Shown one piece after another: positions 11,435 through 44,600 of a DNA stretch of 64,000 nt (position 1 is the stretch's first letter; each line of letters begins with the position of its first letter). The position numbers and the translations under genes were made by a program. The notes below the pieces were generated by a model, which was not told the origin of the DNA, did not search any database, and saw only the letters and a list, made by a program, of their open reading frames with translations. The stretch lies in the NCBI GenBank assembly GCA_963730795.1, contig CAVSTJ010000002.1, positions 17,007-81,006 on the forward strand. The letters run 5' to 3'. This stretch comes from an uncultured Acidobacteriaceae bacterium. GTDB taxonomy: Bacteria > Acidobacteriota > Terriglobia > Bryobacterales > Bryobacteraceae.

Positions 11435-11446
11435 CGCTTAGGACTC

Positions 11447-25979: not shown

Positions 25980-26651
25980 TTATCTTGGCATGGACATGGC
26001 ATCGCAATTGCTCTCAAAGGCCGCAGAACGGTTCCGGTAGAGTGAGGGATCAATCACGCCCATCATGGCGTCGGTATCCAGCCGAAGATCAAGGAATCGG
26101 CTAATTTCGGAGACCGTCTGTCCGGGCTGCCCCAAAACGTTATCGTAGTCCAGATAAAGAATCTCGAAATTGCTTTTCCTCTCCATCCAACTGTATAGCT
26201 TTTGAAGCTGCTCATCGAACGACCCCGCCAACTGTTCTGGGCTAAGAGAGCTTTGTTCTTGCCGTCTGCGAAGCATTACCTTTTGGGACGCGATTACCTC
26301 GTTGAGGTTCCGCCTCATGAAAATGACCTTATACATCTGATCCGCGGGTAAGGCATAGAGCAATACATAGATGACCTTTACGGCCTTCCCAAGAGCATGA
26401 GGCAGCCACGAGGCGTCCTTGTCCATCCGCTTGACGGCCTCGAACTCGTAGTAGCCACGCGGATTATCTTCGTCTGCCTTCCTGAATCCGTCAGTGAGTA
26501 CAGGGATCCCGCCGCTTTCGAGCATGCGCATCATCATGGATGTTCCGGATCTGGGAAGACCTGAAACAACGGTTATGAAATTATTTTGCCCTGTGTCCAA
26601 TACATTCTCCTCGAAGTACATCTGCAAAACTTGTCCCGGTATCCACGGCAT
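25980..26651 (-). CDS. PAPS-dependent sulfotransferase family protein
   Basis: 5'-PSB loop FITVVSGLPRSGTSMMMRML. At 223 aa it fits the size of a Sulfotransfer_3-type enzyme. Confidence 0.8.
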   Translation of the reverse strand: MPWIPGQVLQMYFEENVLDTGQNNFITVVSGLPRSGTSMMMRMLESGGIPVLTDGFRKADEDNPRGYYEFEAVKRMDKDASWLPHALGKAVKVIYVLLYALPADQMYKVIFMRRNLNEVIASQKVMLRRRQEQSSLSPEQLAGSFDEQLQKLYSWMERKSNFEILYLDYDNVLGQPGQTVSEISRFLDLRLDTDAMMGVIDPSLYRNRSAAFESNCDAMSMPR

Positions 26652-26652: not shown

Positions 26653-27928
26653 TCACATCCGTGCCGCGTTCGCTACACTCTGCTGAATTATCTCCACGGC
26701 ACTTAGGACTCCGCTCTCCTGACCTATGCGCCTGCCAAGCTCAGCAGCGCGGCCGCGCATCTCCTTATTCGAAGTTGCCTGAACCGCTTCGGTCAAGGAA
26801 TTCTCGGTCAATTGTTTGGCAGGAATCGGACGTGGACCAGCGCCAAGATCATATACTCGACTTGCCCAGAAAGGTTGGTCCGCAAACACGGGCACAACGG
26901 CGGCAGGCAACCCGGCGCGTAATGCCGCTCCCGTTACGCCGGCTCCCCCATGATGAACCGCTGCACAGACACGGGAGAAAAGCCAGGCGTGCGGCACCGA
27001 GTTCAAACTGATAACGTCATCACTAAGCCTTCCCGTGGATAGTCCGCTCCCGCCTGCCAGAATTACTCCGCGCTTATGTGCACGTTCGAGAGCTCGAACC
27101 ACCAACCGGGTAGATACTTCGGGCTGCGGAAAAGGTGTACTGCCGAAACCGACGAAGACCGGGGGTGGACCGGATTCGAGAAAATCGACCAATTCTGCCG
27201 GCGGTACCCAATCTGAACCATCGTTCAAGAACCAATAACCGGTAACATGAATCCACTCATTCCAGTCAGGTGGTCGCGGTACAACCGCAGCGCTATAGGC
27301 GTCGAGGATAGGAAGGCGCCTCCGGTCCAAGACCTTAAAGGGTTCCATCAGCGGCAAAGGATGCAACCCGAGTACAGTTGTGCGTGCCGCATTTGTGTTC
27401 CGCCGAAGCATGCTCCACATCACCGTCCGGAACACGGCATGTTGGAACGCAGTCCACTCTCCTCTCAAGAGTGGTTGCTACATTCTTTTTTCCAGCCCAA
27501 TCATATTGCGTCCGCGCGAACGGGCTGGTCTGAACCCGTATCAAAGGGACATTGAGCCGTTCGGCAATGTGAACGCCTAAAAGAATACCCATTCCCGAGA
27601 CGACGATCGCTTCCACGTCGCTGCAATCGCGCCAATACGTAGCCATTCCCTCTTCGATAAGGGATCCGGCAAGGCGCACAAAACCTTTCAGAAAACCCGC
27701 GGCGGTGGTTCGGCCGCGGACCCACTCGCGTCCCGCATCGGTGTTCGCCATGTCGAGCGGTCTGCCGCCAATTGAAAGGTGATGGAGTCCGTACGGCTGA
27801 ACGAGATCCTCAAAGCCACCGAGCGTGACGATCCGCACCCGGTGACCCGCGTCCCGCAGACCAATGCACAGGGCGATGTAGGGTTGAACATCGCCCCTGG
27901 AGCCGATAGCTAAGACATCGATACGCAT
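26653..27928 (-). pseudogene. GT1 (GT28-N / sterol-glucosyltransferase-like UDP-glycosyltransferase), frame-disrupted
   Basis: The N-terminal half (MRIDVLAIGSRGDVQPYIALCIGLRDAGHRV...) is in ORF 27335..27928. The C-terminal half (HVTGYWF...VFVGFGS...HHGGAGVTGAALRAGLPAAVVPVFADQPFW) is in ORF 26653..27468. The frames switch near 27455-27480. The total span is 1 mod 3. Confidence 0.75.
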
Positions 27929-27946
27929 GCGCGTCGAGTGGCTTTA

Positions 27947-30113
27947 CTACGGCTGGCTTCCCGTACAGAACTCACTCGAAGTTACCTGTTGGGGAAATTG
28001 AGTGTAGAGCTGGAGCCGTCTTACGAGCTTGCTGTATAGAACATCGGCGTCGGTTGATTCGGGATCCTGGAGTGAAGGGGTACTGAGTTGCTTTACCGCT
28101 CCGTTGATCTGGCAGGCTGCCGCCTGCTGCTGTGCAGCGACAAGTTTCTGCGTAGCACCGGCCGAGCCGCTACTTGAGGTAAATCGTCCCCGCGCAGTCC
28201 AGACTTGTACTTGGTCCAGCAGTTGGCTGAACGTCACTGGGGGGGTGTTCATGGGGAAAGCCACTAAATTGGAAGGATCCGACGGTGCGCTGTTCTTTTT
28301 CTCTGCGGTGACATAGTACATGTATTTCTGCCCGGCTTGGGCCGTTGAGTCGAAGAAAATGGTGGTACTTACATCTGCGATATCGGTCCATGGACCCACG
28401 CACTGATCGGGGATCTTGTTCCCGTACTGCAGATTCCAGCCTTCAACACTCACGTTGTCTCGCACTAGGCAGAGACTTAGCTGGGCACGCCAGACGTGGT
28501 AGATCTTCGCGCCGCCCACGCTGTTCCATGAGAGAAGTGGGTTGCCATTTTTTGCCGGTTCCATCTCCAGACGACCCGGAGGGTCCGGTGCCGACGATCC
28601 TCGAGTATTGGCCTGAAAAATCATAAGCCCGTAGTAATCGTTCACCGAGCCAACAAACATACCGTGAGGGGTGTAAGCCATAGAACGGAAGCCGTAGTCG
28701 AACTTACCCCCCAATGGATCGCCCTTGTCTGTAAAGCCATTCAGAGTCATCGGACTGAAATACCACGCGTCCTGCGTGCGGTAAAGCTGTGCTCCCATGT
28801 TTGCCGCCAACAGTGGTCCGTAATTACTATCGAATCGCGCTGCTGTGCTCGCGTTGTATGTTCCGATATACAGATACCTGAATGGGTCGTCCATTTGCCA
28901 CGCATGATCGTTCAGAGTAAGACCGAACCCGGCCTCAAGGCCGCTGCTGGGATACTTCATCGCGGAAGAGCCGTTCGCAGCAGGCACGGATCGGGGCGCC
29001 CCGACCACCAAATCCCATGTGTCGTCAGGGTTGATTCGAACGATTTCCGTAAATGTTGCCGTCCCAACGTACAACTGCCCTCCGTATACATGCATGCTCA
29101 CGACAGACTTGCTCGCGGTAGCGGGACTCAATCCTCCACCAGCGGGCACCACGGTGATGAACTGGTACGGCGGTGATCCCTCGGCCTTCGTCTTGACTAC
29201 TGAGTAGCCGCCGACAGGATCAAAGCCGCCCAGGTATAACCATCCATTAAAAACCTCAAGCTCATAGTAAATGGGGTTTGCGTCGCCTGCTAGAAACCAT
29301 GAATTGTCGCCCTGCGACGGGTTGGCTGAGGCGATCAGCGAGCCCTGGCCGAAAGCTGGCCCGCACAGGGCAAACAGCTTTCCGTTGTAGGAAGTCGCCG
29401 CGCGAAAACTGGAATGATCGGAGTTGAACGGAAGATCTCCCAGGAACGTTCCAGGCGTTTGTGGTAAGGGCGAGAAGTTGATGCCGTCAGTGCTGCGTAG
29501 GATGCGGGGAGGCGGCAGCTTTGTTCGATCATAGATGATGGTGGTATTCACGCCGAACGCGTACAAAGCCTGCGTGCCATCTGGTTCCGTGTAAGTTGTG
29601 AAATCCCGAATAGCCATCTCGTACGGGAGTTTCTTTCCTGGGCGAGGCGGAAAAGCAGGAACACCGGCTCCGGGATTATCGAGCGCGAGAGGCGACTGAA
29701 ATACTCGTTGCCAGCCGCCGCTCTGAGTCCAGCGCCAGATCTCAGCCTGAAGGCTTAGATCCGCTGGGTCGGGAGCACACGAAAGATCCGGGTCAGTAGG
29801 TGGGTAGGGCAAATAGGTATTCGCCAGACTGGCGCTGACGTTGATACTTACGTATTGCCAGACCGCATCCCAACTGCTACAAAGCGACTGCCGGCTCGTA
29901 CCGACGTATAGCGCATTGTTCCACCAGATCATGGCTTGCGGCCAACTGTTGTTTCGGTCTCCGAAGCCGCGAGGTGCGGCCTCCATAAAAGTTACTTGCG
30001 GTTATGGGTCGTGTGCTGTTTTGCGCCCTTGTAAGGGACGCGCCGAGCGTGAGGGACACGGTTATCAGTCCAGCGGCGATGAGGGCTGCTCGTTGGTGCT
30101 GTGTTTTGTTCAT
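27947..30113 (-). pseudogene. secreted beta-propeller-like + FN3-like domain protein, signal peptide separated by a frameshift
   Basis: ORF 29877..30113 begins with a clean Sec signal (MNKTQHQRAALIAAGLITVSLTLGASLTRAQ). It abuts the 679-aa ORF 27947..29986 in the adjacent frame, with the switch near 29986-30005. An FN3-like segment (KIYHVWRA...YMYYVTAE) lies near the C-terminus. The span is 1 mod 3. Alternatively the 679-aa ORF is a stand-alone CDS. Confidence 0.55.
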
Positions 30114-30241
30114 GAATACAACTACGTCCTATTCTTGGGATTACTTTTACTTCAGGCAAACGCGGGACTTGTGTGTCTGAGGCGCGATTCTCGCGGCCGC
30201 AGCGCTCTGGCAAAACCAGACAATGTATTTGGGAGACCGGA

Positions 30242-31580
30242 TTACAATACCAGACTGGTTGAGGCCTCTTCCATCGCTCGGGGCGATTTCACGGCGAGGG
30301 ACTCCAGCAACTCAGCAGCGTGTGCCGGGCCCGGCGCCTGCGCCAATTTCTCAGCGATGCGTCGGGCATTCGCTCGAAAATGAGGCTCTTTGAGCAATCT
30401 CATAACAGCAGCACGGACGCGATCCGGTGTACACTTCCGGGGCGCAAGCCGAATTCCAACGCCGGCTTCTACAACGCGCTGAGCATTATCACTCTTTTCC
30501 CAGAATGTCGGGACCATCAATAGCGGCACACCAGCCTTCAGCGCAGCCATAACGGTGGCTGGCCCTCCGGTGGTTACCACGACGGCACAATGGGGCAGCA
30601 AATCCTCATGGCTGAGCCACCGTTCGACTCGCACGTTTGTTGGAAGAGGATCGAGGCCCAACGTTTTAGGATCCCTTGACTGGCCCGTTGTCAGGATTAC
30701 TTCGACCGCCTCATTCGCCAGTCCTGCTGCGGTCGCACGCAACAAGAACGGTTCTTGATACTGCGCCGTACCTTCTGTTGCGTGAACCCATGGCCGCGTC
30801 TTTGTAAGCTCGTTCAGCCACTGTGGCTGGGGTGCTCCCCCAGGTCTGGTCCATACGCATGGACCGACATAATGCACGTTCGACGGTTGATCGTGACGTT
30901 CGTAATCGAGTTCCGGAATGCTCGGGATGAGGTATAGCGGCAAGCGCCCGCTGAAGGCGTTGATCGAACCACCCATAGGCTTCAAACCGTATCGGGCCCT
31001 GATCCGATTGACTTGCTGGCGCATGCGGTAAGCGATTACGTCGATGGCTAACTCGGTTGCGCGCGCAAGCAGCCTCGTTCTGAAGTTCCGGGGCGGTGGG
31101 AGTCCGGGACCCCAGGGTGGCGCATCCGGTCCCGGAATCAGAGAGCCCATCATCGTCGACGAAAGGGCAACCGGTAAACCGGTAAGCTCCCAAATAACCA
31201 ATATGGAACCCCACATTGCAGGATCCGTAACCAAAGCCTCAGGTTGCCATTCCTCGAGGATCGGCTTCAGGTCTGTCGACCTGCTCCGGAATGGAGTCAG
31301 CGAGCATGTCGCGATAGGCCCGCATCGCAACGGAGAGAGTTTGACGTTTCGGTTGAGTAGCCGGTACTTTGGCTTCAAGCGCGTGGATACGCTCGTAGCG
31401 CTGGTCGTCAACATGAATGAATGGGAACAGCTTGAAGCCTTCTCCTTCGACCACTGGACGCGTGGATTCGTGGCTGTAGAAGGCAACATCGTGACCGCGA
31501 TCGCGCAGCGCGTGCGCGATGCTGATCTGGGGATATAGGTGTCCAACGAACGGCCAACACGTGACAAGGAAACGCGCCAT
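30242..31580 (-). pseudogene. GT1 MGT-family UDP-glycosyltransferase, frame-disrupted
   Basis: The N-terminus MARFLVTCWPFVGHLYPQISIAHALRDRGHDV is in ORF 31239..31580. The remainder (DLKPILEEWQPEALVTDPAMWG...TTGGPATVMAALKAGVPLLMVP) is in ORF 30242..31567. The switch is at about 31265-31285 (GTCGACAGACCTG). The span is 1 mod 3. Confidence 0.8.
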
Positions 31581-32960
31581 TAGTCGCTACCTCCCTGGCC
31601 CATCGTTAACGGCACTAATGATGGATTCATTTGTGAGAGACGAACACTGCCGCCTGCTGCGGTGGCGCTTAGGTTTTCCAGCATCTTGGCAGCCCTGCTC
31701 GGACCCTCGTATTCGGTGAATGAGCGGGCAAGGCGCTGGGCGTTCCGGCGAAACGATGGCTCGTTCAGCACGCGTTCGACAGCAGCCCTAAGCCGCTGCG
31801 GCGTACATCGCGTTGGCGTAATGCGAAGGCCGGCCCCGGCCTCAACCACTCGTTGCGCGTTTTCCGGTCTGTCCCACTCGGTTGGCACAATGACCAGAGG
31901 GATACCGGCTTTGAGAGCCGCAAGCACGCCACCCGACCCGCCCAGAGTCACCATTACGGCAGTTTTAGGCAACAAATCGCTCTGCGGCACATACGACTCG
32001 ACACGCACATTCGGATAAACCGGGCCTAGATTCAGCGCCGCGGGATCCCGCTGTTTTCCCGTTGTCATAACGACCTCAAAGGGTCCATCTCCGAATGCAC
32101 GCAACGCCGCTTTCAGCAAGAAAGGTTCCTGCGTTCCAATGGTCGCCTCCGTGACGTAAATCAAGGGCTTGTCCGGGGCAAGCTGCGCGATCCATTCGGC
32201 TGGCCCTATCTGATTAGGCTTATCCCAGAGGCACGGACCCACATATTGAACAGAATGAGGCAAATCGCGGCGCTGATAATCGTACTCCGGCGTGCTCGGG
32301 ACAAGATAGAGCGGCATCTGGCCGGCGTACTCCGTAACAGAACAGCTCACGGGCGGCAAACCGTACCGCTTGCGAATGATATTCACCTGCGCTCTGAACC
32401 CAGTCGAGAGCCACGACACGACCATGAATTTCAGTCTTGACTGCAAACGCATGAGCGGCGTTGCGTGGTTTGGGCAAACCCTGACCCCAGAATGGGGCAT
32501 CCCGTCCTGGCAGAATGCAAGCAGCAAGAATTGACATAACGGCAACAGGAATCTGCCTGGCCTCGTGAAGCACGATGATGGGCCCCCAAAACGCCGGGTC
32601 GCAGATCAACACCTCCGGGCGCCACTCCTCGAGCAAGAGGTCGAGATCCTGAATCTGATCTGGAACGGTATCGAGCAGCCACTCGCGAAATCTCGTCTGG
32701 AGCTTGCGTGCGCGCTTCAACTGTTTAAGGAGCGAAGGCGAATAAGCAAAGTCGTCGGACGATGCGAGTTCCCGAACTCTCTCCTCATCGACTCGTTTGA
32801 AGGGAAAAAACGCAAACCCTTCGCCCTCGATCACACTGCGCACCGATGAACCACTATAGAAACCGGCCTCGTGACCGCGCGCCTGAAGCGCATGAGCCAA
32901 GGCGATCGCCGGATTGACGTGACCCGGGAAAGGCCACACTGCAAACAGAAATTTAGCCAT
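31580..32960 (-). pseudogene. GT1 MGT-family UDP-glycosyltransferase (paralog of 30242..31580), frame-disrupted
   Basis: The N-terminus MAKFLFAVWPFPGHVNPAIALAHALQARGHEA...GQGLPKPRN is in ORF 32220..32960. The remainder (RLQSRLKF...RKRYGLPP...TLGGSGGVLAALKAGIPLVIVP) is in ORF 31580..32545. The switch is at about 32450-32475. The span is 1 mod 3. TAATG stop/start overlap with the next GT1. Confidence 0.8.
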
Positions 32961-32988
32961 TCCTTCGTCTACGTACCTTCGGTTCGGA

Positions 32989-33927
32989 TCAGTCTCTCAG
33001 CGCAGGTTTAGCGCTGAGTGGCGGAGCGCTCTGAGTTGCACGGCGGATCACGGTGCGGAAGTAGATCCGTTCGAACAAATCTCCCGGCAACCACCTTCGG
33101 AGAGCCACGGCAAGTTTCGCCTTCCGGCCGACCATGTAGCGGAGGTTCGGATTCTTAGCAGTTAAAGCACCATAGACGACCGCCGCAACATCGCCGGGCG
33201 TCGCGGTAGATGCCTGAACTAATTTGTCCGACTCCTGTTCAGATCGAGAGAACCACGCCGCATAGGGGCTATTCGGATCACCTGCCCGCGCAGCAAGACC
33301 ACGGTTGATTGTCCAGCGCTCCGTCTTGATAATGCCTGGTTCAACCAGGACAACGTTGATTCCCAACGGTGCCAACTCCATGAAGAGTGACTCGCCAAAA
33401 CCCTCCACCGCAAACTTGGTAGAACAGTAGGCGCTCACACCCAGTGAGCCGATCCGACCTCCTACCGAACTCATCAGAATGATCCGGCCGTTCCTCGCCT
33501 TTCGCATATGAGGGAGCACCGCCCGGGTTACTTCCATCACTCCGAAAAGGTTTGCCTCAAACAAACGGCGGATCTCATCGTAATCCAAATCCTCGAAGTA
33601 GCCGCGCAAGCCCACACCGGCATTGTTGATGACACCGTAGATTGCACCAGCCTCGGCGACGATCGAGTCAACGACTGCACGGATGCTGTCTCGATCGGTG
33701 ACGTCGAGTGACATTACCCTGAGATCCACGCCTCGATCTCTGGCAGCACTGAGCAGGCTTTCGGATCCGCCCATGTCCCGGACCGTCGCATACACCTTGA
33801 ATCCGCGTTCGGCGAGATACAAGGCCATCTCTTTTCCGAGCCCAGTCGAAGCTCCGGTGATGAGGATGGCCGCGCCCTTCATTGTTTCTCTCATTTGCTG
33901 ATTTCCGAGCCTACTGTCCTTGATCAC
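32989..33927 (-). CDS. SDR family oxidoreductase
   Basis: ILITGASTGLGKEMALYLAERG (TGxxxGxG), NNAG and YCSTKFAVEG (YxxxK). GTGA overlap with the upstream hydrolase gene. Confidence 0.85.
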   Translation of the reverse strand: MIKDSRLGNQQMRETMKGAAILITGASTGLGKEMALYLAERGFKVYATVRDMGGSESLLSAARDRGVDLRVMSLDVTDRDSIRAVVDSIVAEAGAIYGVINNAGVGLRGYFEDLDYDEIRRLFEANLFGVMEVTRAVLPHMRKARNGRIILMSSVGGRIGSLGVSAYCSTKFAVEGFGESLFMELAPLGINVVLVEPGIIKTERWTINRGLAARAGDPNSPYAAWFSRSEQESDKLVQASTATPGDVAAVVYGALTAKNPNLRYMVGRKAKLAVALRRWLPGDLFERIYFRTVIRRATQSAPPLSAKPALRD

Positions 33928-34787
33928 GAGTTCGCTAGAAGTTGCTCGGGCTCCCTGCTCTCACGCATGGTTTCAGCAGCCTCCAGGAACTTTCTTACAT
34001 TCTGCAGCAACAGGTCCGGACGCTCGATCGGTCCGAAATGCTCACTCCCCGAAATGAGCGTGCATGTGGAGTTGACCAAGTGATCTCGCAAATACTCGTA
34101 TGTGTCGAGGAACACGGAATCCTCCCCGTAGATCACGAGCGTCTGATGCTGAACTTTGTTTATCGCGTCGAGCGTCATACCGGCCAACTCGCAATAATCC
34201 TTCGCGGCCGTGGTCGTATCCATCAGTCTCACCAGCGGCGCAGCACGACGGGCGCGACCCTTCCTATAGCCGAACAGCATGGGAAGTCCGACACTGGCGC
34301 GAACCAAGTATTCCGTGTCGTACCATTTCTCTCGCGGAACTACCACTCCGCCCAGAGCCAACTTATCCCGCCAATATTGCCAGCCGGCCCAATCCTCTCG
34401 CTCGCGCAACGGGATCAGCGCCGCAATGGCTGGCTCAATCAGTATCAGGCGGTCCACCCGGTCGGGGTAAGCAATCGCGAAGTGCAGGGCGACATCCGCA
34501 CCGAAGCTGTGTCCCATGATGTGCGCCCGCTCGATTCCCAATGCATCCAGAAGCTGGCGCAGGTCCGACGCGTGATCCGCCGTGGTGTAACCGGTCGGCG
34601 GTACGTCGCTATATCCATGACCGCGCAAATCGTAAGTTGCGAGCCGGTACTCGGACATCAGCGCCGGCACAATCTCGAGGTGCCAGATCGCCAGATTCCC
34701 AGTCATGCCGTGAATCATCACGAGGTTTGGCCCTTCCCCGAATTGCTGAAAATGTAGATTAAACCCGTTAACGAGCGCTTTAGGCAA
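33924..34787 (-). CDS. alpha/beta hydrolase
   Basis: LVMIHGMTGN oxyanion region, nucleophile elbow IMGHSFGADVAL and C-terminal SGSEHFGPIE (catalytic His). Confidence 0.85.
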   Translation of the reverse strand: MPKALVNGFNLHFQQFGEGPNLVMIHGMTGNLAIWHLEIVPALMSEYRLATYDLRGHGYSDVPPTGYTTADHASDLRQLLDALGIERAHIMGHSFGADVALHFAIAYPDRVDRLILIEPAIAALIPLREREDWAGWQYWRDKLALGGVVVPREKWYDTEYLVRASVGLPMLFGYRKGRARRAAPLVRLMDTTTAAKDYCELAGMTLDAINKVQHQTLVIYGEDSVFLDTYEYLRDHLVNSTCTLISGSEHFGPIERPDLLLQNVRKFLEAAETMRESREPEQLLANS

Positions 34788-34801
34788 CTAAGAATTTCTC
34801 C

Positions 34802-36411
34802 TCATTCCACATATCCGAGTGCACGTAAGTGCTGCATCACTTCCGCAGCAACGTTGGCATCAATAGCTGGCGCTTCTTCTGAACTACTATCCGAACCAGC
34901 TTGCGTAGACGCTCCGAAGCGCACTGGATGCGATTGCAGGTATCCAGGCTCAAACAGTTCGCCCGGCACGCGGCCTTCGAAATCGATCGGAATCGGGATT
35001 TCCAATGAGTGAAGGAGCAGCGGTGCAACATCGAGGATGGAAAGCGACGGCACGGAGGCACCCCGCCGTATTCCAGGGCCTGAAGCCGCAAACACGCCTT
35101 GCGGACGATGCGCGCCACTCAATTCTTTGCGGGGCCTCAGAGAGGACTTCGGAAGGCAGAATTGACACTAGGCCGCCATCCCTGAGCATCAACGTCAAAT
35201 CCGGGGCTGCTCGCATCTGATCACCGGCAAACGCTTCCTCTCGCGTCCAGATCTGAGACACGACTTTTCTTCCGGTCACGGGATCGAGCGAATTCGAGCA
35301 AGCGGTCCTTCAATTCACGCCGGAAGCCTTCATAGTCAGCGGCAGCCACTCCTTTTCCCTTGGCTGTCCGCGGTACGATGTAGATCCCGTTGCTGCTCGG
35401 AGTCGGGCAATAGGCGGTGGTTCTGTCCCAATCGATTTGATAGAACCGCTTTGCCATCGTCCCGATACCAAGAGTCTCTGCGTGTTTCTGGTCAACGGTG
35501 GCGTTATCAGTCCAGGCTAAATACCCGTGTTGGTGAAGCCAGGCATTCAAATAGAAGACTTCTTCCGTTGGCCCGAAGCCGTGATCGGAAGCGACAACCA
35601 CGCTCGCCTCTGGTCCGCCGGTCGCGACGATCTCCCCGATAAACTGGTCAATCTCGCGGAAGTATTCCAGGCACAACTGACGAGCCCGAAGCTCCCAGAC
35701 GGACGGTGAAGATGGAAACAAGCTTGAGTCCAGAAAACGCCAGCAAACATGCTGCAGCTTATCCACTCCGTCAAACAGGACTGCCGTCAAATCGCATGGG
35801 TCCGTTTGCATCAGGTAGCGAAGCACATTGAACCATTGCCGCTCTCTGCGAGTATGTAAGATAATCCAACTTTCGTAGTCTTCCTCGCGTGTACAGCCCT
35901 CAAGCGCTCTCTCTTCGAGCGCCATATCCATGGCCATTTCTTTCGCATTGAAGCCAGGAAGAGCCGAAAGCTGTTCGTACAGGGACTTGGGATAACACGC
36001 GAGCCGAAGATGGCGCCACGGCACCCAGCCGGGAACGACACTGCCTAGGATTTTCGGGGCCGGGAAGGTAGACGGGAAATTCAGCACCGTGGCCGTTCGC
36101 TCGTGCCGCGTGAGGATGGACCAGATCGTTTCAGAAGCGACGTCTTCGGAACTCACTACTCGAAGCTGATGCCCGTCTGAACAAAATTGAAAGCGTAAGA
36201 AGTCGAAGATGCCATGATTCCCGGGACTGCGGCCGGTCATGAGCGATGTCCAGGCGGGTGGAGTAAGCGGGGGAATCACCGAGGCGAGTTCCGCACGCGT
36301 ACCGGACGCGAACAACTTCTTCAGTGAGGGCATGACGCCCGCTTCGATGAGCGGGTCAAGGACCGAGAACGTAGCTCCGTCCAGGCCGATGAGAAATGTA
36401 CGCCTGGTCAT
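34802..36411 (-). pseudogene. alkaline-phosphatase-superfamily phosphodiesterase/nucleotide pyrophosphatase, two frame disruptions
   Basis: The N-terminus FLIGLDGATFSVL...PPLTPPAWTSLMTGRSPGNHGIFDF is in ORF 35221..36411. The middle (VTGRKVVSQIWTREEAFAGDQ...) is in ORF 34950..35279. The C-terminus (SGAHRPQGVFAASGPGIRRG...ILDVAPLLLHSLEIPIP) is in ORF 34802..35122. The switches are near 35275-35300 and 35105-35135. The span is 2 mod 3. Confidence 0.75.
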
Positions 36412-36713
36412 CGGGCAACCCCTGCAGCCGCCCCATTCAAGTGGCTGTGAACAAATCCGACAAGTTCACCTATAGTTAGGTCCTTGACATCTCTCCGACC
36501 TATATCTGCGAGCAATTGCGGAAACGGCATGGGGCGGCCATAATGCTCCTGCACAAACGAGGCCAGCACCACAGTGTCAATGGACTCAAACCCTAAATCG
36601 GCGAACAGTAGCGTATCGGGCGTTATCTCTCCCGAGTACTCCCAATCCCGGGACAATTGGCTGAGTAGGTTGACCACGTCGGTCATGACTGTCGGTTGAT
36701 CAACTGCGCTCAT
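36408..36713 (-). CDS. acyl carrier protein (PP-binding)
   Basis: LFADLGFESIDTVVLASFVQEHYG, with Ser at the DSL position. The start ATG 36713 (MSAVDQ...) has AGAGGA 5 nt upstream. ATGA overlap with the downstream gene. The track ORF extends to 36860. Confidence 0.7.
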   Translation of the reverse strand: MSAVDQPTVMTDVVNLLSQLSRDWEYSGEITPDTLLFADLGFESIDTVVLASFVQEHYGRPMPFPQLLADIGRRDVKDLTIGELVGFVHSHLNGAAAGVAR

Positions 36714-37998
36714 CAGTTCCTCTTTCATAAAATGATGTTGCGAAGACGTATTCCCCTTCCCGCGCTGTGTAGGTAACGAGTTCACTCTGCAAAGCTTGGG
36801 GAACTTCGGCGGCGAGTTTCCCGGAAGGAGCGGCTCGAACAATGCCCGTCTTTGCGTCAACCGAGATTATTCGTACGCTACTCGGTCCTTCGAGAAGTCC
36901 GCGACCAAGAGCTTTTGCAACAGCCTCTTTCGTACACCACAGCCTTAGTACCCATTCAGGCCGGTTTGATTCGGAGATGTTTGCAAGAAGTAGCCGCTCG
37001 TCAGAGGTAAACGCAACATTGACAAAGCTTGACGCGAGTTCGCGTATAGCTTGGATATCAATGCCGAAGGAGCCGCTGTTTCCATTGCCGGCGACAGCGA
37101 CGGCAGTTCCGTTGGAATGCGTCAGAGACAAACCCGGAGCAGTTCGCAACCGTTTCAGCCACGATCCTTGGGCAAACGGCTTGCCATGCTCGTCCTGAAC
37201 GATCTCAATATCTGCAGGCAACAACTCTAGTCCGTAATGCCGCTTTAGCAGCGAGCGAATTGCATCCTTGGCGGCAGTCCTGCCACTCAACCACTCCAAG
37301 CGTCGTTTTTCAGGACTCTGCCGTTGCGAAAAGAATTTTCTTTCCTCTCGCGAGAGTACGAGAGAAGCCCACAGGTCCGTCCAGAGGCCGTCGCCAGGTT
37401 CGAACAGGCTTTCAACCCGATAACACTCGAGGCTATCCCTGGCCGGTATGCCACGAAGCGGCGTCTCCCAGGACTCGCTAATCAGCGCTTCACCGGGAGC
37501 AATCCAGGCGTGGTGAAATCGCTTCGGCGGATCGAAGCGGCGATCTTCCCACCCGCGGACTTCCATCCATAATGATCCATCACTCCCCAGGACTTCGATG
37601 GTTGAGCGAATGCGCTCATTGCCGATCATCTGCAGCTTCAACCGGCAACTGAGTTGTTCTCCGGCGGGGCGATTGGGTCCGTAAATGCGAAGAGTTTCCA
37701 GCCGGTACGGAAACACGACAAAGCCCGATTCCAGGTACTCAGCGGCCCAGAAGCCTACAAGTTGACCCGCAGCGTCGAGCGCGACGGGATCGGTAACGAA
37801 GGATGGCTCGGGGTTCGACCTGAAGAGATTATTGGTTGGCAGTATTCTCAGATGGGCGGATACGCCGTCTTGGCCCGAGCGATCTACGCTCGCCACTCCC
37901 TGGAAGCAAGGACCATGAAACATCAATCGCCCGTCGTATAGATCGGCGGAGGCCAGGCTTGAAACCCGTTCGGCCGCGAGCGAAAACGGAGCGCGCAA
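36700..37998 (-). CDS. C-terminal half of a PKS dehydratase domain fused to an Sfp-type 4'-phosphopantetheinyl transferase (probably the 3' part of the upstream PKS gene)
   Basis: LYDGRLMFHGPCFQGV and DPVALDAAGQL parallel the second half of the DH domain of the 2901-aa synthase. PPTase motifs FGIDIQAI and LWCTKEAVAKALG are present. The ORF has no plausible independent start (the track start is TTG inside the DH domain). Confidence 0.7.
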   Translation of the reverse strand: MRAPFSLAAERVSSLASADLYDGRLMFHGPCFQGVASVDRSGQDGVSAHLRILPTNNLFRSNPEPSFVTDPVALDAAGQLVGFWAAEYLESGFVVFPYRLETLRIYGPNRPAGEQLSCRLKLQMIGNERIRSTIEVLGSDGSLWMEVRGWEDRRFDPPKRFHHAWIAPGEALISESWETPLRGIPARDSLECYRVESLFEPGDGLWTDLWASLVLSREERKFFSQRQSPEKRRLEWLSGRTAAKDAIRSLLKRHYGLELLPADIEIVQDEHGKPFAQGSWLKRLRTAPGLSLTHSNGTAVAVAGNGNSGSFGIDIQAIRELASSFVNVAFTSDERLLLANISESNRPEWVLRLWCTKEAVAKALGRGLLEGPSSVRIISVDAKTGIVRAAPSGKLAAEVPQALQSELVTYTAREGEYVFATSFYERGTDERS

Positions 37999-40900
37999 CC
38001 GGAGGCTTCGGATACCCGTCGGCGAAAATCATGATTCCCCGAACCGCCGGCGTGTTGACAGTGCTCTTTTCCCCGGTTGACGGGGCGACGTCACGAATCT
38101 GAACCTCGACTTCGTCATTTGACGTGGCGAGTCTTCTGGCTGAGATCTGGAGTTCGGAGGACGCCTCATCTACTCTTATCCAGTGATGGGCCTGAACGTC
38201 ACGCATGCCAATAAGCACTTTGCCCGGCATTAACGCAGAAGCCGCTTCCGCGAGCAGTTCCATGCTCATTGTCAGAGGCAGGACGATCATGGGACGCAGC
38301 GTCGGATCCATTGTCGACACCGGTCCGCCTAAGGCGTGTTCGCGGAGGAAAAGATCATCCTCCAGGTTGAGATGACGAACGGCCGTCAGCTCCTGGCCCG
38401 GCGATAGCGAGGTGATGGCTCCGAGTAGCGGGAAGACGGCTCCAGCAGATTGCCTCGACATCGTACCGGCTTTACTACTTCCGGCAGCTCGGGCGACACC
38501 AAGGAAACTCGCCATCATCTGCTGTTCCACGTTGAGGAACTTCTCCATCCCTTTCATGTACTCTTCCATCACCAACGTCGTCCCGTTTGCGGAGGCACGG
38601 GGACGGATAGGTTGTGGACGGGTTGCAGCCGGCAACGGGATTTCAATCTTTCGGCTAGGGCCGGCATGGGAATCGCCGTTGTGCGGAACGGCCGCAGTGC
38701 TCGGCTTCGAGCTTTGAGGCGCGGCTGGCGGCCGGGGCGCCACTTTGAGCGGAGGCAACGAAAGGACCACCTTCATTGCCGGCGAAACACTCTTTGCTGG
38801 CGGTTTCGGATTTTCGAAGGACACCGGGCTCGGATCGCGACGGGCGTAGAGATAGTCGAGACGCATCCCTATCCCTTGGGCGGCCAGAATACTAACCAGA
38901 TGATTGATTTGTGTTATGCCCGAGCGGCGCGCGATGTTGGCCGGCATCGCAAGATGAGGCTTGCTGCGGAGAATGTCGCCCACGAACGCGGTCAGGTTGC
39001 CGCGCGGCCCTACTTCAACAAAGGTCCGCACTCCGTCCGCGTACATGGTCTCGATCGTCTTGCCGAACAATACGGGGAGCACCCAATGCGCTATATACAA
39101 CTCCCGGATCTCATCTCCGCTATTCGGATAGAGGGCTGCTGTGGTACAGGAATACGTTTCGATCTGAGGTGCGGAAATTCGAAGACGTGAAAAAAACTCA
39201 CGAGCGGCACCTTCTGCGTAAGCCCGGAACATCGGCGTGTGATATGGCCGGTCGAATGGCAGGACTTCATAAATGAGCCCGCGTTGCTGAACGTATTTTA
39301 TTGCCTGCTCGATCTGGTCTTTGCTACCGACGAGAACACTCTGATGAGGGCAGTTGTCCATCGCGAGATAAAGTTCCCCGCCGAGAGCATCGATCATGGA
39401 GCTGACGGTTGCGGAATCAGCCGCAATGGCCAGCAAAGCAGCTTCAGGTACAGAGGTTTCTTTTTCGACCCGAACATGTGCCTGATTCAGTTCCAGGATT
39501 GTTTCGAGATAGGTGGCGTCGCTCGTCAGCTCGATGATATTTGCAGCAAGCATTGCCGAGTAGTCGCCGGTGCTATGTCCAACAATTGCGTCGGGGCGTA
39601 TCTCGAGTCGCCGCAACAGTGTCCAAAGGGCTAGGTTGCCGATGAGGACGCTGCCGACAGCACCCTCTATACCCCAGATCCGTTTCTGTACCTCCGAGAG
39701 CTCAATGTCGGACAAGAGCGAACGAGGAAAGATAAACTCGCTGGGCCAGCATTCGGGTGACTGGTGGCTAAGAGCGCGATCTGCTAGCTCGAAGCACCGT
39801 CTCACCTCCGGGAAATGAAGACAGAGGTCAAGCAACATGTTGGGGTATTGAGCGCCTTCACCCGGGAAAAGGAAGGCGAGCTTGCCCTTGAGCGGCTCAT
39901 CGAAGAAATAGATACCCCGGTTGTCCTTGATCTGCCGACATTTGGGGTCGGCAAGACGGTCTAGGGCATGTGCGAGCTTCGCGTCCAGATCCTGTTTGGA
40001 TTCAGCGACGATCGCAAGACGAGAAGACCGGCCTTCCAGTTCTTTGCTGAGCGTATATGCGACGTCCTTGAGGACGACCTTACTAGCCTCCTTCAGGTAG
40101 TCCCGAAGTCGGTTGCCTTCATCAATCAATCCTTGTCGTGATGAAGCTTCGAGAATGATAGCTTCCGTATCCCATTCGAGAAGGTAACTGTGGTCCTCTG
40201 TTTCACCGGAATACTCCTCGAGCACCGCGTGACCGTTGATTCCGCCAAAACCAAATGAATTCACGCCGGCCCGGCGCGGCGTTTCAGCTCCGTGGAACCA
40301 TGGCCGCACTTCGGTGTTGACGTAGAACGGCGTCTTTTCAAGTTGCAGAGCGGGATTCGGCTTCTCGCAATTCAGAGTGGGCGGCAACACACGGTGGTAG
40401 AGAGCGAGTGCCGTTTTGATCACTCCGGCGATACCCGCGGCTGGCATTGTGTGTCCGATCATGGACTTGACGGAGCCGATCGCACAGCTCGGCAATAAGC
40501 CATGCCGCTCCCCGAAGACCCGGTGTAGCGCCTGCAGCTCCGTCACATCACCCACCGGAGTAGCCGTGCCGTGTGCCTCGATCAAGCCGACGCTCGCAGG
40601 CGAAACATCGGCCATCTCGTAGGCGCGGCGCAACGCAAGCTCCTCGCCTTCGATACGTGGGGCCATGACGTGCAGCGCGCGGCCGTCGCTGGCAATACCG
40701 ACGCCCTTGATCAAGGCATAGATTCGATCGCCGTCCCGCTCGGCGTCCTTTCGCCGCTTTAGGACAACCATTCCTAGGCCTTCGCCAAGAATGGTGCCAT
40801 CTGCGTCCTTGTCAAAGGGTCGAATACGTTCCTGCCGGGATAAGGCGCCCAATTGACAAAAGAGACTCAAGGTTGGGAGTGGCGCGTTAACGTTTGCTCC

Positions 40901-41638
40901 TCCCGCGAGTACCAAGTCGCACTTACCGGTTAGTAGGTCGCGAACGCCTATATCTAAGGCAACCAGTGCGGACGCGCAAGCTGCGTCTACGGTAAAACTC
41001 GGTCCCATCAGATCGAGCCGATTGGCAATGCGACCGGCGATGATGTTGCCTATCAGCGCGGGCGCCGTATCCGCATTGAACGGAGGCAATCCGCCTTTCA
41101 ATTCCTGCTTGATCTGGTTGACTTCCGCCTCGCTGTACTCGGGATGAAGGTTCCGAAGCACCTGGAGCAATTGCTCTACCACCATCCCGTGATAGCCGAC
41201 CGTCAGATTGCCACGGTTAACGTAGGTGCCCTTCCCGAGGATGACCTCGGCGCGCAGATGTTCTTTGGGGGACTCCCGGTACCCTGCATCCGCGAGCGCC
41301 TGAAACGCGACTCGCACCGCCAGCCACTGGTCTGGTTCTCCGCCGTCCACCGTGACCGGCATGACGCCAAAATCCGCGGGGCGGAATTCGGCTAAATCAT
41401 TGATGTATCCGCCGCGCTTACAATAAACGCGGTCGTTCGACTTGGACGATGGATCGTAGAATACGTTCACATCCCAGGCATCTGAGGACGGGTCAGAGAT
41501 GGAATCTACCTTCGAAACGATGTTGCGCCAATAACTGTAGAGATCGGGTGCGCCCGCAAAGAGGCAGCTCATCCCGACGATGGCCACATCGCCTTTAAGC
41601 TGAGGTAGTTCCTTTTCTGCCTCGGTGCTGACCTTCAT
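37829..41638 (-). CDS. type I PKS, KS-AT-linker-DH(N-terminal half); reading frame breaks at about 37985-38025
   Basis: Start ATG 41638 (MKVSTEAE...) forms an ATGA overlap with the upstream stop. KS motifs: DAACASALVALD (Cys codon 40976-40978), EAHGTATPVGD, GHTMPAAG. AT motifs: FLFPGEGAQY, VGHSTGDY (Ser codon 39572-39574). DH motif: LREHALGGP...LPLTMSMELLAEAA. The last ~50 codons are Arg-rich out-of-frame sequence. Confidence 0.85.
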   Translation of the reverse strand: MKVSTEAEKELPQLKGDVAIVGMSCLFAGAPDLYSYWRNIVSKVDSISDPSSDAWDVNVFYDPSSKSNDRVYCKRGGYINDLAEFRPADFGVMPVTVDGGEPDQWLAVRVAFQALADAGYRESPKEHLRAEVILGKGTYVNRGNLTVGYHGMVVEQLLQVLRNLHPEYSEAEVNQIKQELKGGLPPFNADTAPALIGNIIAGRIANRLDLMGPSFTVDAACASALVALDIGVRDLLTGKCDLVLAGGANVNAPLPTLSLFCQLGALSRQERIRPFDKDADGTILGEGLGMVVLKRRKDAERDGDRIYALIKGVGIASDGRALHVMAPRIEGEELALRRAYEMADVSPASVGLIEAHGTATPVGDVTELQALHRVFGERHGLLPSCAIGSVKSMIGHTMPAAGIAGVIKTALALYHRVLPPTLNCEKPNPALQLEKTPFYVNTEVRPWFHGAETPRRAGVNSFGFGGINGHAVLEEYSGETEDHSYLLEWDTEAIILEASSRQGLIDEGNRLRDYLKEASKVVLKDVAYTLSKELEGRSSRLAIVAESKQDLDAKLAHALDRLADPKCRQIKDNRGIYFFDEPLKGKLAFLFPGEGAQYPNMLLDLCLHFPEVRRCFELADRALSHQSPECWPSEFIFPRSLLSDIELSEVQKRIWGIEGAVGSVLIGNLALWTLLRRLEIRPDAIVGHSTGDYSAMLAANIIELTSDATYLETILELNQAHVRVEKETSVPEAALLAIAADSATVSSMIDALGGELYLAMDNCPHQSVLVGSKDQIEQAIKYVQQRGLIYEVLPFDRPYHTPMFRAYAEGAAREFFSRLRISAPQIETYSCTTAALYPNSGDEIRELYIAHWVLPVLFGKTIETMYADGVRTFVEVGPRGNLTAFVGDILRSKPHLAMPANIARRSGITQINHLVSILAAQGIGMRLDYLYARRDPSPVSFENPKPPAKSVSPAMKVVLSLPPLKVAPRPPAAPQSSKPSTAAVPHNGDSHAGPSRKIEIPLPAATRPQPIRPRASANGTTLVMEEYMKGMEKFLNVEQQMMASFLGVARAAGSSKAGTMSRQSAGAVFPLLGAITSLSPGQELTAVRHLNLEDDLFLREHALGGPVSTMDPTLRPMIVLPLTMSMELLAEAASALMPGKVLIGMRDVQAHHWIRVDEASSELQISARRLATSNDEVEVQIRDVAPSTGEKSTVNTPAVRGIMIFADGYPKPPVARSVFARGRTGFKPGLRRSIRRAIDVSWSLLPGSGERRSLGPRRRIRPSENTANQ

Positions 41639-44600
41639 GAGCCAAGCCCGACAGCAGCGGTCATCGACTTTCTCGCAAGGCGGTTTAACGCTGTGCTGCA
41701 CGCGCCCTGCATGTCGTCCAGAACAGCAAAGACACGTCGGGTTGCTGCGTCGATGAAGAAAATGTCGGCATGTATCGTCTGGGAACCAGTGTTCGGCCGA
41801 ATTCTCATTTCGCACAACACCGGCCCGCTGGATGGCTCGCCGAAGCGTGAATAGCTCTGGAAGCCGGAGGGTAACGCGGTCATGTCCCAGTGTTCCCGCG
41901 CCCAGACAACAAGCAATTGCAAAGCGCTATCGAACATAAGGGGATCGATCAGCCATGGGCGCTTGGGATCTCCTGCCACAAGGTCAGACGGCCGCGACCT
42001 TGCCAGCAGGGCTGTGATTCCACTCGGTCCAATACTCTCGATCCTGCTAATTCCCTGCAGCAATGGGCCGTGAAATAACCACTGATTGTAGAAGTCTTCG
42101 CGTGTCAAGCGGAATGCACCGCCATCCGAGAGCAGAACCGGCTCACGAGGTGGCGTTTGAGGCAACCCCTGTGCAAGTTCGACAGTCGCCCGGTAATGCA
42201 CTCGATACGGCTGTTCGGCGCTCACCAACTCCACAGCTACGCTCGTTTTGTTCGGCTCGCTTACCGACTGCGATTTCGAGACGATTCGAATGTTCCCGTG
42301 TTCTTTATCGAGGACGATTCCCTTTAAAAGCTGCAGGTCGCGGATCGACGTGAACTGCAACTCAGGCCAGTTCTGCGCCACCACTTCGGCCATCAGCTCA
42401 GACGCGACAGCTAGTGGCAGAACAGGGCGTCCGTCAATTCGGTGGTCGTCCAGGTAACGGTCGTGAACTGGGTCCAACTCGCAGACGAATTCCCGAGTGC
42501 CATTAACCCCCGATGAGCTGATCCGCGGGAGGAGAGGCCAATCGCCGAAAGACTCCGCATGTTGCTTGACAGGACTCCATCCGGCTCCTCCAATGACGAC
42601 CTCGGCTTCGCCCCGATGTCCAAAATTCAACTCGTCTTCGAGCATCTGGAGCCCGACCTCCGGAGGAATCAACTCGACGCCGCGTTCGACGAATTGCCGG
42701 CGAACTTCTTCCGAGACCATGCCCGGGCTATCCCAGGGTCCCCAATTCATTGCCACCACGCGCCCCGGCCAACTGCGGTCAAGAGATACCGCGAGCTTGT
42801 TCAGCACTTCGTTCGCCGCCGCATAGTCTCCCTGCCCGCGGTTGCCGAATCGCCCCGCTACAGACGTAAAGAACACGAGAAACTGGAGACTCTCCGAATG
42901 AAGCTTGCGCGTCAGAGTGAAGGCGCTGTTGACCTTGGTATCGAAGACGCGATCGAACGATTCGACGGTTTTGTCTTGCACGAGCTTGTCTTCAATGACA
43001 CCCGCGGCATGGATTACGCCATCCAACCGGCCGAAGCGTTCGTAGATGCTGTCGATGACCGAGGCGAATGCCTCGGCATCGCGTACGTCAACGGTCTCGT
43101 AGTGCACCGCTCCGCCGAGCTTTCGAAGCTCCTTCAGATTCTGACGAATTTCGCGTTCACTCATGAGCCGCGCATAGGCCTGTTCGACACGCGCCGGTGT
43201 CACCTGGTCCCCGCCCCGGCGCATGGATTCCATGAGCGCAGCTTTCAGTTCTTTGGGTGAACTTAGTTGAGATGTTTCCGCGGACTCCTGTGCCTCGGGC
43301 ATAGGGGTCCGGCCTATCAGCACGATCGTGGACCCGTAACGTTCTGCGATCCGATGCGCCGCGCGCGCCCCGATTCCACGCGCACCGCCCGTTACGAGAA
43401 CTACCGAAGAGCTATCGATGGCGAGCGCAGGTTTTCCCTTCCTCTCTGGAGCGGTGAGATTCAGATCCAGACAAAGACGACGAGCGCCTTGATACCCGAT
43501 TTCCGTGTGGCCTTCTTCCGCGACGTTCATTTCGCCCAAGAGATGGTCAGCGAGATCTTGTCCGTTCTCCTCCGGGTTGAGATCGACGACCCGGATCCTC
43601 ACTTCCGGCCATTCGATGGCGAGCGTTTTCGTAAGTCCAGCAATGCCGCCGTGATCCGGGTACGAAACCGGAGAGTCGGGAGACAAGCCAGTCATGAAAG
43701 CGCCGCCCATCCCTGTCGCCGCAATCAGAGATGCTCCTTTGTTTTGCCCGGCCTCCCGCAGTTGCTTGCCTGCTGCCTTTGCGAGATAGAACAGGCTCTT
43801 CGTGCCTACCATTAGCTTTTGGCTACTGTCTTCGAGGGCCAGATTTCGAGGAGATGGTCTATTCGCCAACGGGTAGAGATGAACGATAGCGCCGATCGCC
43901 CCCTGGCGTTCATTCACGAGAGAAATGAGCTGGTTGACCGCTTCCGGCGAACCTAAATCAGCTTCGTAAAATCCGCTCGCCCGCTCTTGAACTCGTTCGC
44001 CCATAGCTACTGTGACGACATGGTGTCCACGGCGGTGCAACTCCTCGCCCAAGGCGGTCGCGATACCGCGCCCGTCATCGGTAATCAGGACGGTTCGGTC
44101 CTTCGCCACGGGCTGCAGGGCACCAGCTAGCGGCCTCTCAACGGCAGCCAATGTGAAACGTCCGATGTTCGCCGTTTCTCGCTTATGGTCGTTCGAAGTT
44201 GAAACGCCTGCCGTCGCTCTGAAGTGCTCATCCGATTTGTCGGCAGTCGCCGGCTCACTGTCGCCGGACACCGGCTTTTTCTGAGCAACTTGCAAGACAC
44301 AATCGATGATGCCGCGCAAGGTATGCATTCCCGCGAGTTGCTCGATCATTCCCTCGTGGGTTGCTTGTCCGAGTTCGAAGAGTGCTTGCTGGAAGTTGCC
44401 CAATATCTCGACTCGCTTGATGGAGTCGATTCCGAGGTCCGCCTCCATGTCCGCATCTACGTCCAGCATCTCGGGCGGATATCCGGTCCGATCGCTCACT
44501 GTAGCGAGCAATCGTGCGGTCAACTGTTCCCTGCTCGGGGCGCCAGCTTTAGGAACACTCATCTCCGCAGAGGACACAGAAGTGGGCGCTTCCGCGCCAA

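Follow-up and report, generated by a model that had tools for sequence, protein, structure and literature searches.

Six adjacent genes on the minus strand, between 27.4 and 38.0 kb of the 64-kb stretch of DNA analyzed here (the window), are broken by seven single extra bases, each causing a +1 shift of the reading frame. The affected genes belong to a polyketide/glycolipid cluster of a soil acidobacterium and encode a KS-AT-DH-PPTase polyketide synthase (PKS), three GT1 glycosyltransferases, a secreted protein and an AlkP-family phosphodiesterase, the last of which contains two of the breaks. In our assessment, the seven extra bases are most likely not biology but insertion errors of the consensus or its polishing, which may have arisen where strains are polymorphic; in the organism itself, all six genes are probably intact.

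The disruptions were traced by several comparisons, which agree on what an earlier note on this DNA had claimed, namely seven +1 disruptions in six adjacent genes. At each of the seven places, the frame changes by +1 between minus-strand stop-to-stop segments. Pfam domains are split at the breaks: for example, Glyco_transf_28 N-terminal domains are followed by EryCIII-like_C in a different, adjoining frame, positions 2–241 of 342 of Phosphodiest are found in one frame, and the two halves of the DH domain occupy two frames. Homology continues cleanly across the breaks, as had been stated before, since intact orthologues of L001, L003 and L004 align without the loss of a single residue at any of them (tblastn and frameshift-aware protein-DNA alignment). 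Compared with the intact cluster of L013 (80% nucleotide identity), the window carries uncompensated 1-nt insertions at 37993, 35286, 35141, 32456, 31278 and 29985, and the remaining in-gene indels are multiples of 3 or locally compensated. The seventh site (27463–27480) was derived from frameshift-aware protein-DNA alignment and site-context analysis. The earlier note had also advised a comparison with orthologous clusters of relatives; at all seven positions, the orthologues of L001, L003, L004 and L013 are single ORFs. Removal of one base per site (two in the phosphodiesterase gene) repairs all seven disruptions as proposed, yielding lengths that are multiples of 3 with no internal stop, and the lengths of the repaired ORFs come within 1–5 residues of those of intact Bryobacterales orthologues wherever an orthologue was available.

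The first of these genes in the direction of transcription is the PKS gene (36703–41638, minus strand), which encodes KS-AT-DH and a C-terminal 4'-phosphopantetheinyl transferase according to Pfam and is divided into two frames with the break in the DH region. Its orthologues in L001, L003, L004 and L013 are single ORFs of 1,647–1,698 aa, and the repaired product has 1,646 aa compared with 1,647 aa in L013. The extra base lies within GCGCGCTCC (37987–37995), where all candidates stand in runs of 1–2 and the exact base is ambiguous. The phosphodiesterase gene (34805–36411, minus strand; AlkP-family type I, Pfam) is spread over three frames, its orthologues measure 533–552 aa, and the window's own 396-aa fragment is present in a public protein collection as P0005. 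Here, both extra bases can be placed exactly on the coding strand: the C at 35288 in TTCG[C]TCGAT, for which alignment to a 99.5%-identical contig (L015, see below) has a single solution, and the C at 35140 in CTCT[C]TGAGG. Neither base has a counterpart in that contig, and neither duplicates a neighbouring base (G[C]T and T[C]T).

Further along the minus strand, the GT1 glycosyltransferase gene GTa (31583–32960) has its N- and C-terminal domains in separate frames (Pfam), with the extra base in AACGCCGCTCATG (32452–32463), and GTb (30245–31580; Pfam) breaks after approximately residue 100, with the extra base in CAGGTCGACAG (31275–31278), where no candidate is part of a homopolymer. After repair, the two proteins have 459 and 445 aa, respectively, each equal in length to its L013 counterpart. 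In the gene of the secreted protein (27950–30113), which matches no Pfam family, the signal peptide and the mature part are encoded in different frames; the repaired protein has 721 aa compared with 716 aa in L013. Its extra base lies in AACTTTTATGGAG (29983–29991), the sole site that possibly involves a short run (T4 or GG). Finally, GTc (26656–27928; Pfam) is broken between its domains, with the extra base in ACCACTCTTGAGAGGAGAG (27463–27480). The switch ranges given in the earlier note hold for six of the sites, and the second phosphodiesterase site, at 35140, falls 5 nt outside the proposed 35105–35135. Its statement on sequence context stands with respect to long homopolymers, the longest run touched by any site being T4 at 29987–29990; three sites do sit within short alternating stretches (GCGCGC, CTCTCT and GAGAGGAGAG).

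Outside these seven sites, the search for further frameshifts across the 64-kb window returned none. The alpha/beta hydrolase and SDR genes located between the hits (32992–34787, minus strand) are intact, with Pfam assignments and lengths matching L013, and the hydrolase is identical to the Logan protein P0125 at 286 of 287 residues. The EPS locus and the synthase core are likewise intact, in line with the earlier description: Pfam domains are all complete in the ORFs at 1–24 kb, which form the EPS locus, and at 50–64 kb, and a PKS of 2,901 aa is encoded by one ORF. Two ORF overlaps were considered as additional frameshifts and rejected. The overlap of 180–290 nt between two PKS ORFs at 41.7 kb is natural, as the same overlap occurs in L003 and residue 1 of the orthologue aligns there. 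The overlap between ACP and PPTase at 36.7–36.9 kb is a natural gene boundary, with an ACP of 101 aa, as in L013. The confinement of all seven sites to 10.5 kb of the 64 kb is significant (P = 1.2e-4), also when only the 25.7-kb cluster is taken as the reference (P = 0.022), and so is the identical sign of all seven (P = 0.016). Because clustering and uniform sign are both significant, the proposal of one local cause is sound.

The most direct evidence on the nature of this cause comes from same-species sequence. A 2,079-bp contig (L015), which Logan assembled from ENA run ERR11523676, covers window positions 35649–33569 with 99.5% identity; 9 substitutions separate the two sequences, and the only indels are two 1-nt gaps in the contig, opposite 35288 and 35140. 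In this contig, the C-terminus of the phosphodiesterase is encoded by one ORF of 281 aa, of which 280 residues match the repaired window protein. That L015 lacks the two extra bases that can be checked makes an artefact more likely than biology. This same-species comparison spans two of the seven sites, and a second Logan contig (L014) ends 450 nt before position 27466. For the other five sites, searches with two 90-aa chimeric protein queries around each site and two rounds of cluster look-ups yielded nothing beyond fragments of the window itself and relatives with at most 89% identity; an artefact origin of these five would follow by extension from the two in L015. Furthermore, both Logan contigs, at 24 substitutions over 3.8 kb (0.5–0.9%), belong to a distinct strain or haplotype, and an intact contig from another strain or haplotype is no proof of intactness in the strain of the window.

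The pattern of selection also bears on the question of artefact or decay, which the earlier note had left as two options. In comparison with L013, dN/dS ranges from 0.03 to 0.16 on both sides of every break having an L013 orthologue, and from 0.08 to 0.10 in the intact neighbours; no rise that would indicate relaxed constraint was found upstream or downstream of these breaks. GTc was excluded from this comparison, as the gene at the corresponding L013 position is non-orthologous (36–41% identity), and L001, L003 and L004 were used for GTc instead. At the level of strains, 14 of the 17 in-gene substitutions between the window and the two Logan contigs are synonymous and 15 of the 17 fall on third codon positions in the repaired frame, a pattern to which substitutions downstream of the GTc and phosphodiesterase breaks contribute as well. 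Lastly, the lesions in the affected genes comprise no deletion, nonsense codon, multi-base indel or slippage context, and a spectrum of seven 1-bp insertions only is unlike natural decay. Of the two options, the artefact thus gains support from L015, which lacks both bases that it spans, and decay is disfavoured by dN/dS, the synonymous substitutions and the lesion spectrum.

The related loci and their sequencing platforms also point towards an artefact. Frameshifts occur in the cluster of both Nanopore-only Microflora Danica MAGs, L003 (one) and L005 (at least four), compared with none in the related cluster of the four other assemblies (L001, L002, L004 and L013). The Microflora Danica MAGs were assembled with metaFlye and polished once with Medaka (PMC12313526), and frameshifting indels are known from Nanopore-only MAGs at coverages below approximately 40x (PMC9262707). 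Consistent with such a provenance, the fragments of the window in the protein collection derive from an NCBI+ENA record with a 91-kb contig, a source pattern shared with the Microflora Danica MAG L003. Known Nanopore consensus indels, however, fall mostly in homopolymers, unlike the extra bases of the window, which counts against an artefact. The window resembles the long-read consensus indel errors described for Nanopore and PacBio CLR data, as detected by the IDEEL split-gene test (PMC9262707), in its genes being divided into neighbouring ORFs whose homology runs on perfectly past the break, the lack of the breaks in an independent same-species assembly, the lack of relaxed selection and the similar breaks in this cluster of Nanopore-only relatives. 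Such errors are, however, classically located in homopolymers, often deletions and distributed genome-wide depending on coverage, whereas the window has insertions only, most of them not in homopolymers and all within 10.5 kb of a 64-kb stretch that is clean elsewhere. The frameshift-free remainder of the window (approximately 50 kb) therefore requires a special local cause to be assumed, which counts against an artefact.

Most likely, long-read metagenome assembly or polishing, acting on what we infer to be a long-read-only source, introduced the extra bases into the deposited consensus, in a part of the contig that caused local difficulties. If this stretch is polymorphic between co-occurring strains, as we presume, the consensus may have retained both alleles side by side, turning, for example, GTC/GCC into GCTC and TTG/CTG into TCTG. 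Such allele merging would explain the uniform +1 sign, the lack of a duplicated neighbour at the resolvable sites and the clustering; it is a mechanism that we infer, and for which we found no published documentation. Low local read depth, for example along a minor-strain path in the assembly graph, could alternatively have a similar effect.

The strongest competitor of a consensus artefact, although unlikely, is that the insertions are real, very recent and strain-specific, the product of the cluster having become dispensable in this one strain, and the tailoring genes and the DH region of the PKS having gained all seven bases since its divergence from the intact strain in ERR11523676. The frameshifts do stand in the public record and were not created by this window: fragments of its split genes are already contained in public protein collections (e.g. 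P0005, P0126, P0127, P0129 and P0252), and the presence of these truncated products led us to reject planted or synthetic frameshifts. A strain-specific event is conceivable given that the Logan contigs stem from another haplotype. The copy of the cluster in L005 illustrates that such copies can look heavily disrupted, and by our own estimate a few indels would, at a neutral divergence of approximately 1%, not be numerically far-fetched for 11 kb of DNA free of constraint. Like the window, pseudogenized biosynthetic gene clusters show disruption of adjacent genes of one cluster next to intact flanking loci. Bacteria are, however, in general deletion-biased, and a +1 in seven of seven lesions has a probability of 0.016 even under no bias. 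The window further departs from pseudogenization in having no deletions, no nonsense codons, no larger indels and no raised dN/dS; its lesions are uniform, the resolvable bases are not slippage-type duplications, and two testable lesions are absent from a 99.5%-identical strain. Substitutions that arose downstream of the breaks after the strains split are synonymous in the old frame, and a dead cluster should have collected lesions in the intact PKS sequence (12.6 kb) as well, which makes the observed confinement improbable (P = 0.022).

A variant of this explanation, which we consider quite improbable, is a genuine and localized burst, in one strain, of single-base insertions other than slippage-type duplications, for example along an error-prone repair or recombination tract of approximately 10 kb, through which six genes would have been knocked out at less than 1% divergence from an intact sister strain. 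Even less probable is a systematic error of basecalling or polishing that depends on sequence context, such as a motif with a modified base, and does not involve strain mixing. In its favour, CGCTC occurs at the extra base in three of the seven sites (37993, 35288 and 32456), whereas a 5-mer common to three sites turned up in only 4% of trials with seven randomly chosen sites (a post hoc P value), and a reading as coding-strand C is possible for as many as five of the seven extra bases. The same strand of the window, however, contains 118 CGCTC, including 24 in the flagged region, almost all of which carry no extra base, so that the motif alone accounts for neither the clustering nor the four remaining sites; its occurrence at three of seven sites is only suggestive. 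TCGA was also considered as a common motif, being present at two sites in the alignment with L013, and was dropped when the exact alignment with L015 moved the base.

Programmed +1 ribosomal frameshifting, by which full-length proteins would be made through seven recoding sites as in prfB (release factor 2), where a +1 shift is likewise needed for the full-length product, would fit the exact homology across the breaks without residue loss and the uniform sign, but is effectively excluded because the sites are not conserved, the orthologues of L001–L004 and L013 having no shift at any of these positions and the 99.5%-identical strain lacking the two testable ones, and because no slippery or stimulatory motif is common to the seven sites, which, in contrast to prfB with its conserved slippery codon and adjacent stop or rare codon, lie in seven different, unrelated contexts with the next zero-frame stop 36–233 nt downstream.

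Taken as a consensus artefact, the pattern of clustered, all-insertion, non-homopolymer changes represents a recognizable signature. If allele merging is the true mechanism, this signature could help to recognize where long-read metagenome assemblies have mixed strains. When a MAG is built from long reads only, a cluster of split genes calls for read support before it is interpreted as decay of a biosynthetic gene cluster. Should the insertions nevertheless be real, they would represent a very recent, strain-specific loss of the tailoring pathway, which would be of modest interest. For annotation and mining of the polyketide/glycolipid cluster, we suggest treating the six genes, which gene callers now split, as intact.

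The biosynthetic cluster occupies 24.6–50.4 kb on the minus strand of the window (G+C content 55.9%), according to Pfam scans and to the genes called in a close relative. From upstream to downstream, it comprises a modular PKS of 2,901 aa (41635–50340), a second PKS with KS-AT-DH domains and a fused 4'-phosphopantetheinyl transferase domain (36703–41638), a separate gene for an ACP of 101 aa, an AlkP-family type I phosphodiesterase, an alpha/beta hydrolase, an SDR, two GT1 glycosyltransferases (GTa, 31583–32960; GTb, 30245–31580), a secreted protein without a Pfam family and, at the downstream end, a third GT1 (GTc, 26656–27928), a sulfotransferase and a KAS III, all on the minus strand. When one genome per species was scanned, this gene order turned up in five Bryobacterales (Acidobacteriota) MAGs (L001–L005), whose alpha/beta hydrolases share 64–80% identity with that of the window. 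The closest long-contig relative, L013 (Logan assembly of SRR31724267, ~80% nucleotide identity), carries all cluster genes intact. In the second PKS, the transferase (ACPS) domain is fused at the C-terminus, behind the DH domain, and this fusion is kept in L013 (1,647 aa), L001, L003 and L004. The PKS and GT1 genes are accompanied by a PapA-like condensation-domain acyltransferase (23272–24696, plus strand), the sulfotransferase (25980–26651, minus) and an APS kinase (54197–54742, minus); from these genes, the product may be a polyketide lipid bearing sulfate or sugar groups. A PD40-repeat protein is encoded on either side of the cluster (19669–20823 and 51523–52749, both minus), the two being paralogues; each is ~51% identical to an L003 gene (14531–15787) that lies inside the cluster there, with GTb on one side and the secreted protein on the other.

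Six of these genes are split by frame switches. Minus-strand stop-to-stop segments shift frame by +1 at all seven places named in the earlier note, confirming the switches as features of this sequence. By Pfam, all three GT1 genes show the N-terminal GT1 domain and the EryCIII-like C-terminal domain in successive frames, positions 2–241 of 342 of the Phosphodiest profile are confined to one frame of the phosphodiesterase, and the DH halves of the second PKS fall in two different frames. Intact orthologues of L001, L003 and L004 align piecewise, with frame changes at ~37986–38000, 35286–35290, 35140, 32452, 31273–31278 and 27464–27468, and a frameshift-tolerant protein-to-DNA alignment placed exactly one +1 event at each site, two of them in the phosphodiesterase. 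Homology is indeed clean across the breaks: no orthologue residue is lost, and this includes the break near 29987, where the signal peptide joins the mature protein. Deletion of one base per site repairs every gene and leaves no internal stop, yielding a PKS of 1,704 aa from an upstream GTG at 41815 (1,646 aa if translation begins with the ATG at 41638), a phosphodiesterase of 535 aa, GTa of 459 aa, GTb of 445 aa, a secreted protein of 721 aa and GTc of 424 aa. Where an L013 orthologue exists, these lengths agree with its products within 1–5 residues. The nucleotide alignment to L013 covers six sites, the gene at the seventh being too diverged, and places 1-nt window insertions at 37993, 35286, 35141, 32456, 31278 and 29985, which are the sole uncompensated in-gene indels not divisible by three. 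Comparison with a related cluster, as suggested earlier, finds intact genes in L013 and the 1-nt insertions on the side of the window. Of the earlier coordinates, six held and one did not: the second break in the phosphodiesterase is at 35140, 5 nt outside the range first assigned.

Neighbouring genes are intact as judged by domain completeness: the polysaccharide-locus ORFs at 1–24 kb and the ORFs at 50–64 kb have full-length Pfam matches, except 55179–55970, and the 8.7-kb PKS is a single uninterrupted ORF. A candidate frameshift at the PKS/PKS overlap (41.7 kb) was rejected as a natural boundary, the same overlap being present in L003. The 263-aa ORF at 55179–55970 (minus) matches Pfam GSP_synth at C-terminal positions 279–366 of 371 only, with only ~370 nt of non-coding DNA upstream; it is the sole incomplete-looking gene beyond the flagged region, possibly what is left of a truncated gene, possibly one whose domains are arranged differently. 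In simulations, seven random sites fell inside 10.5 kb of the 64-kb window with P = 1.2e-4, and the same confinement within the 25.7-kb cluster alone had P = 0.022; an identical sign in 7/7 insertions has P = 0.016. Clustering and uniform sign therefore require a single local cause, in support of the inference already drawn in the earlier note.

The frameshifts are part of the deposited record, since P0005, a 396-aa entry of a public protein collection, is 100% identical to the truncated phosphodiesterase fragment. Cluster look-ups retrieved an identical copy of the sulfotransferase and a twin of the alpha/beta hydrolase, differing in one residue, from the Logan assembly of ERR11523676. L015, a same-species contig of this run (2,079 bp), matches 35649–33569 at 99.5% identity; it differs by 9 substitutions and lacks a single base at each of 35288 and 35140. 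Read on the coding strand, these gaps fall in TTCG[C]TCGAT and in CTCT[C]TGAGG, and they coincide with the two phosphodiesterase frameshift sites; the L015 C-terminus is one unbroken 281-aa ORF, matched at 280 of 281 residues by the window gene repaired at both positions. The second contig, L014 (1,744 bp; 27014–25271; 99.1% identity, 15 substitutions, no gaps), ends before reaching the site at 27466, and protein queries around the sites and cluster look-ups found no further same-species sequence for the remaining five. The substitutions in L014 are patchy, with four within 10 nt in GTc (26845–26854) and seven within 34 nt of intergenic DNA upstream of KAS III (25688–25721), which suggests recombination or a strain mosaic.

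Together, the two contigs differ from the window by 24 substitutions. Of the 17 in genes, 14 are synonymous and 15 fall at codon position 3 of the repaired frame; among them, GTc has four and the phosphodiesterase two that lie downstream of frameshifts. The strain differences, being mostly synonymous also past the breaks, are therefore genuine polymorphisms on which purifying selection has acted in the original frames. Measured against L013, dN/dS is 0.03–0.16 both upstream and downstream of every break in a gene with an L013 orthologue (GTc has none) and 0.08–0.10 in intact neighbours. On these sequence comparisons, old or ongoing decay is excluded, leaving only very recent lesions or artefacts. 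The earlier note had offered an insertion-biased consensus or polishing artefact and recent decay of the tailoring genes as causes; the former gains support from L015, which is without the bases at 35288 and 35140, whereas dN/dS and the synonymous changes disfavour the latter.

In our view, the extra bases are probably errors of consensus building or polishing, made in a stretch with some local problem, and the genes are intact in vivo. That the insertions are real, strain-specific and very recent appears unlikely; the Logan haplotype belongs to another strain than the window and so leaves some room for this reading, but it is opposed by the lesion spectrum, by the 12.6 kb of PKS sequence that took no hit and by the synonymous changes found beyond the breaks. 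All seven lesions are single-base insertions, and no deletions, nonsense codons or longer indels were seen in the repaired ORFs or the L013 alignment. Neither of the two exactly placed bases, G[C]T (35288) and T[C]T (35140), duplicates a neighbour. At the other five sites, all on the minus strand, the extra base was narrowed to 4–18 nt, namely 37987–37995 (PKS), 32452–32463 (GTa), 31275–31278 (GTb, with no candidate base in a run), 29983–29991 (secreted protein) and 27463–27480 (GTc). T4 at 29987–29990 is the only run of at least 3 bases at the seven sites; short alternating stretches occur at three (GCGCGC, CTCTCT, GAGAGGAGAG). Natural single-base indels in bacteria arise mainly by slippage in runs and are deletion-biased, a pattern that the observed spectrum fits poorly. 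A motif-specific systematic error, which would likewise be an artefact, has very little probability in our estimate; CGCTC stands at or beside the extra base at 3/7 sites (37993, 35288 and 32456, minus), an association that is suggestive only (simulation P ~0.04, post hoc), with 118 such pentamers on this strand of the window. Programmed +1 frameshifting is negligible as an explanation, as the sites are conserved in no orthologue, share no motif and have no adjacent zero-frame stop, and the two that L015 spans are missing from this 99.5%-identical strain.

Among the related assemblies, frameshifts in this cluster are confined to two Microflora Danica long-read MAGs, L003 and L005; none were found in the copies of L001, L002, L004 and L013. 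L003 (MFD04580.bin.2.7) has one +1 at 12629 in the GTa orthologue, AGCCCC[G]GAATGG, in an otherwise intact cluster; in L005 (MFD09368.bin.2.32), GGATT[C]GATGAG holds a +1 at 14184. The L005 copy (2900–15400) is heavily disrupted, with the PKS spread over three frames, shifts of -1 in the ACP, +1 in GTb and +2 in the secreted protein, and a broken phosphodiesterase of which ~100 residues are recognisable at an identity of at least 52%. The Microflora Danica MAGs were assembled with metaFlye from Nanopore reads alone and given one Medaka polishing round (PMC12313526), and Nanopore-only MAGs under ~40x coverage are reported to need polishing, as consensus indels lead to frameshifted gene calls (PMC9262707). 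Proteins of the window share the NCBI+ENA source pattern of the L003 MAG.

Strain heterogeneity in this species amounts to 0.5–0.9% and is mostly synonymous, and we therefore propose allele merging as the source of the consensus errors. At some polymorphic positions, the consensus would keep both alleles in tandem, turning GTC/GCC into GCTC at 35288 and TTG/CTG into TCTG at 35140, where L013 has CTG. Such merging would yield +1 errors only, of unlike bases only and at strain-variable positions only, and a low-depth minor-strain path would strengthen the effect; we found no documentation of this exact mechanism in the literature. Most likely, the seven breaks are not a real biological feature, and the value of the finding lies in a caveat for annotation and, possibly, in a pattern by which stretches of mixed strains can be recognised in long-read MAGs.
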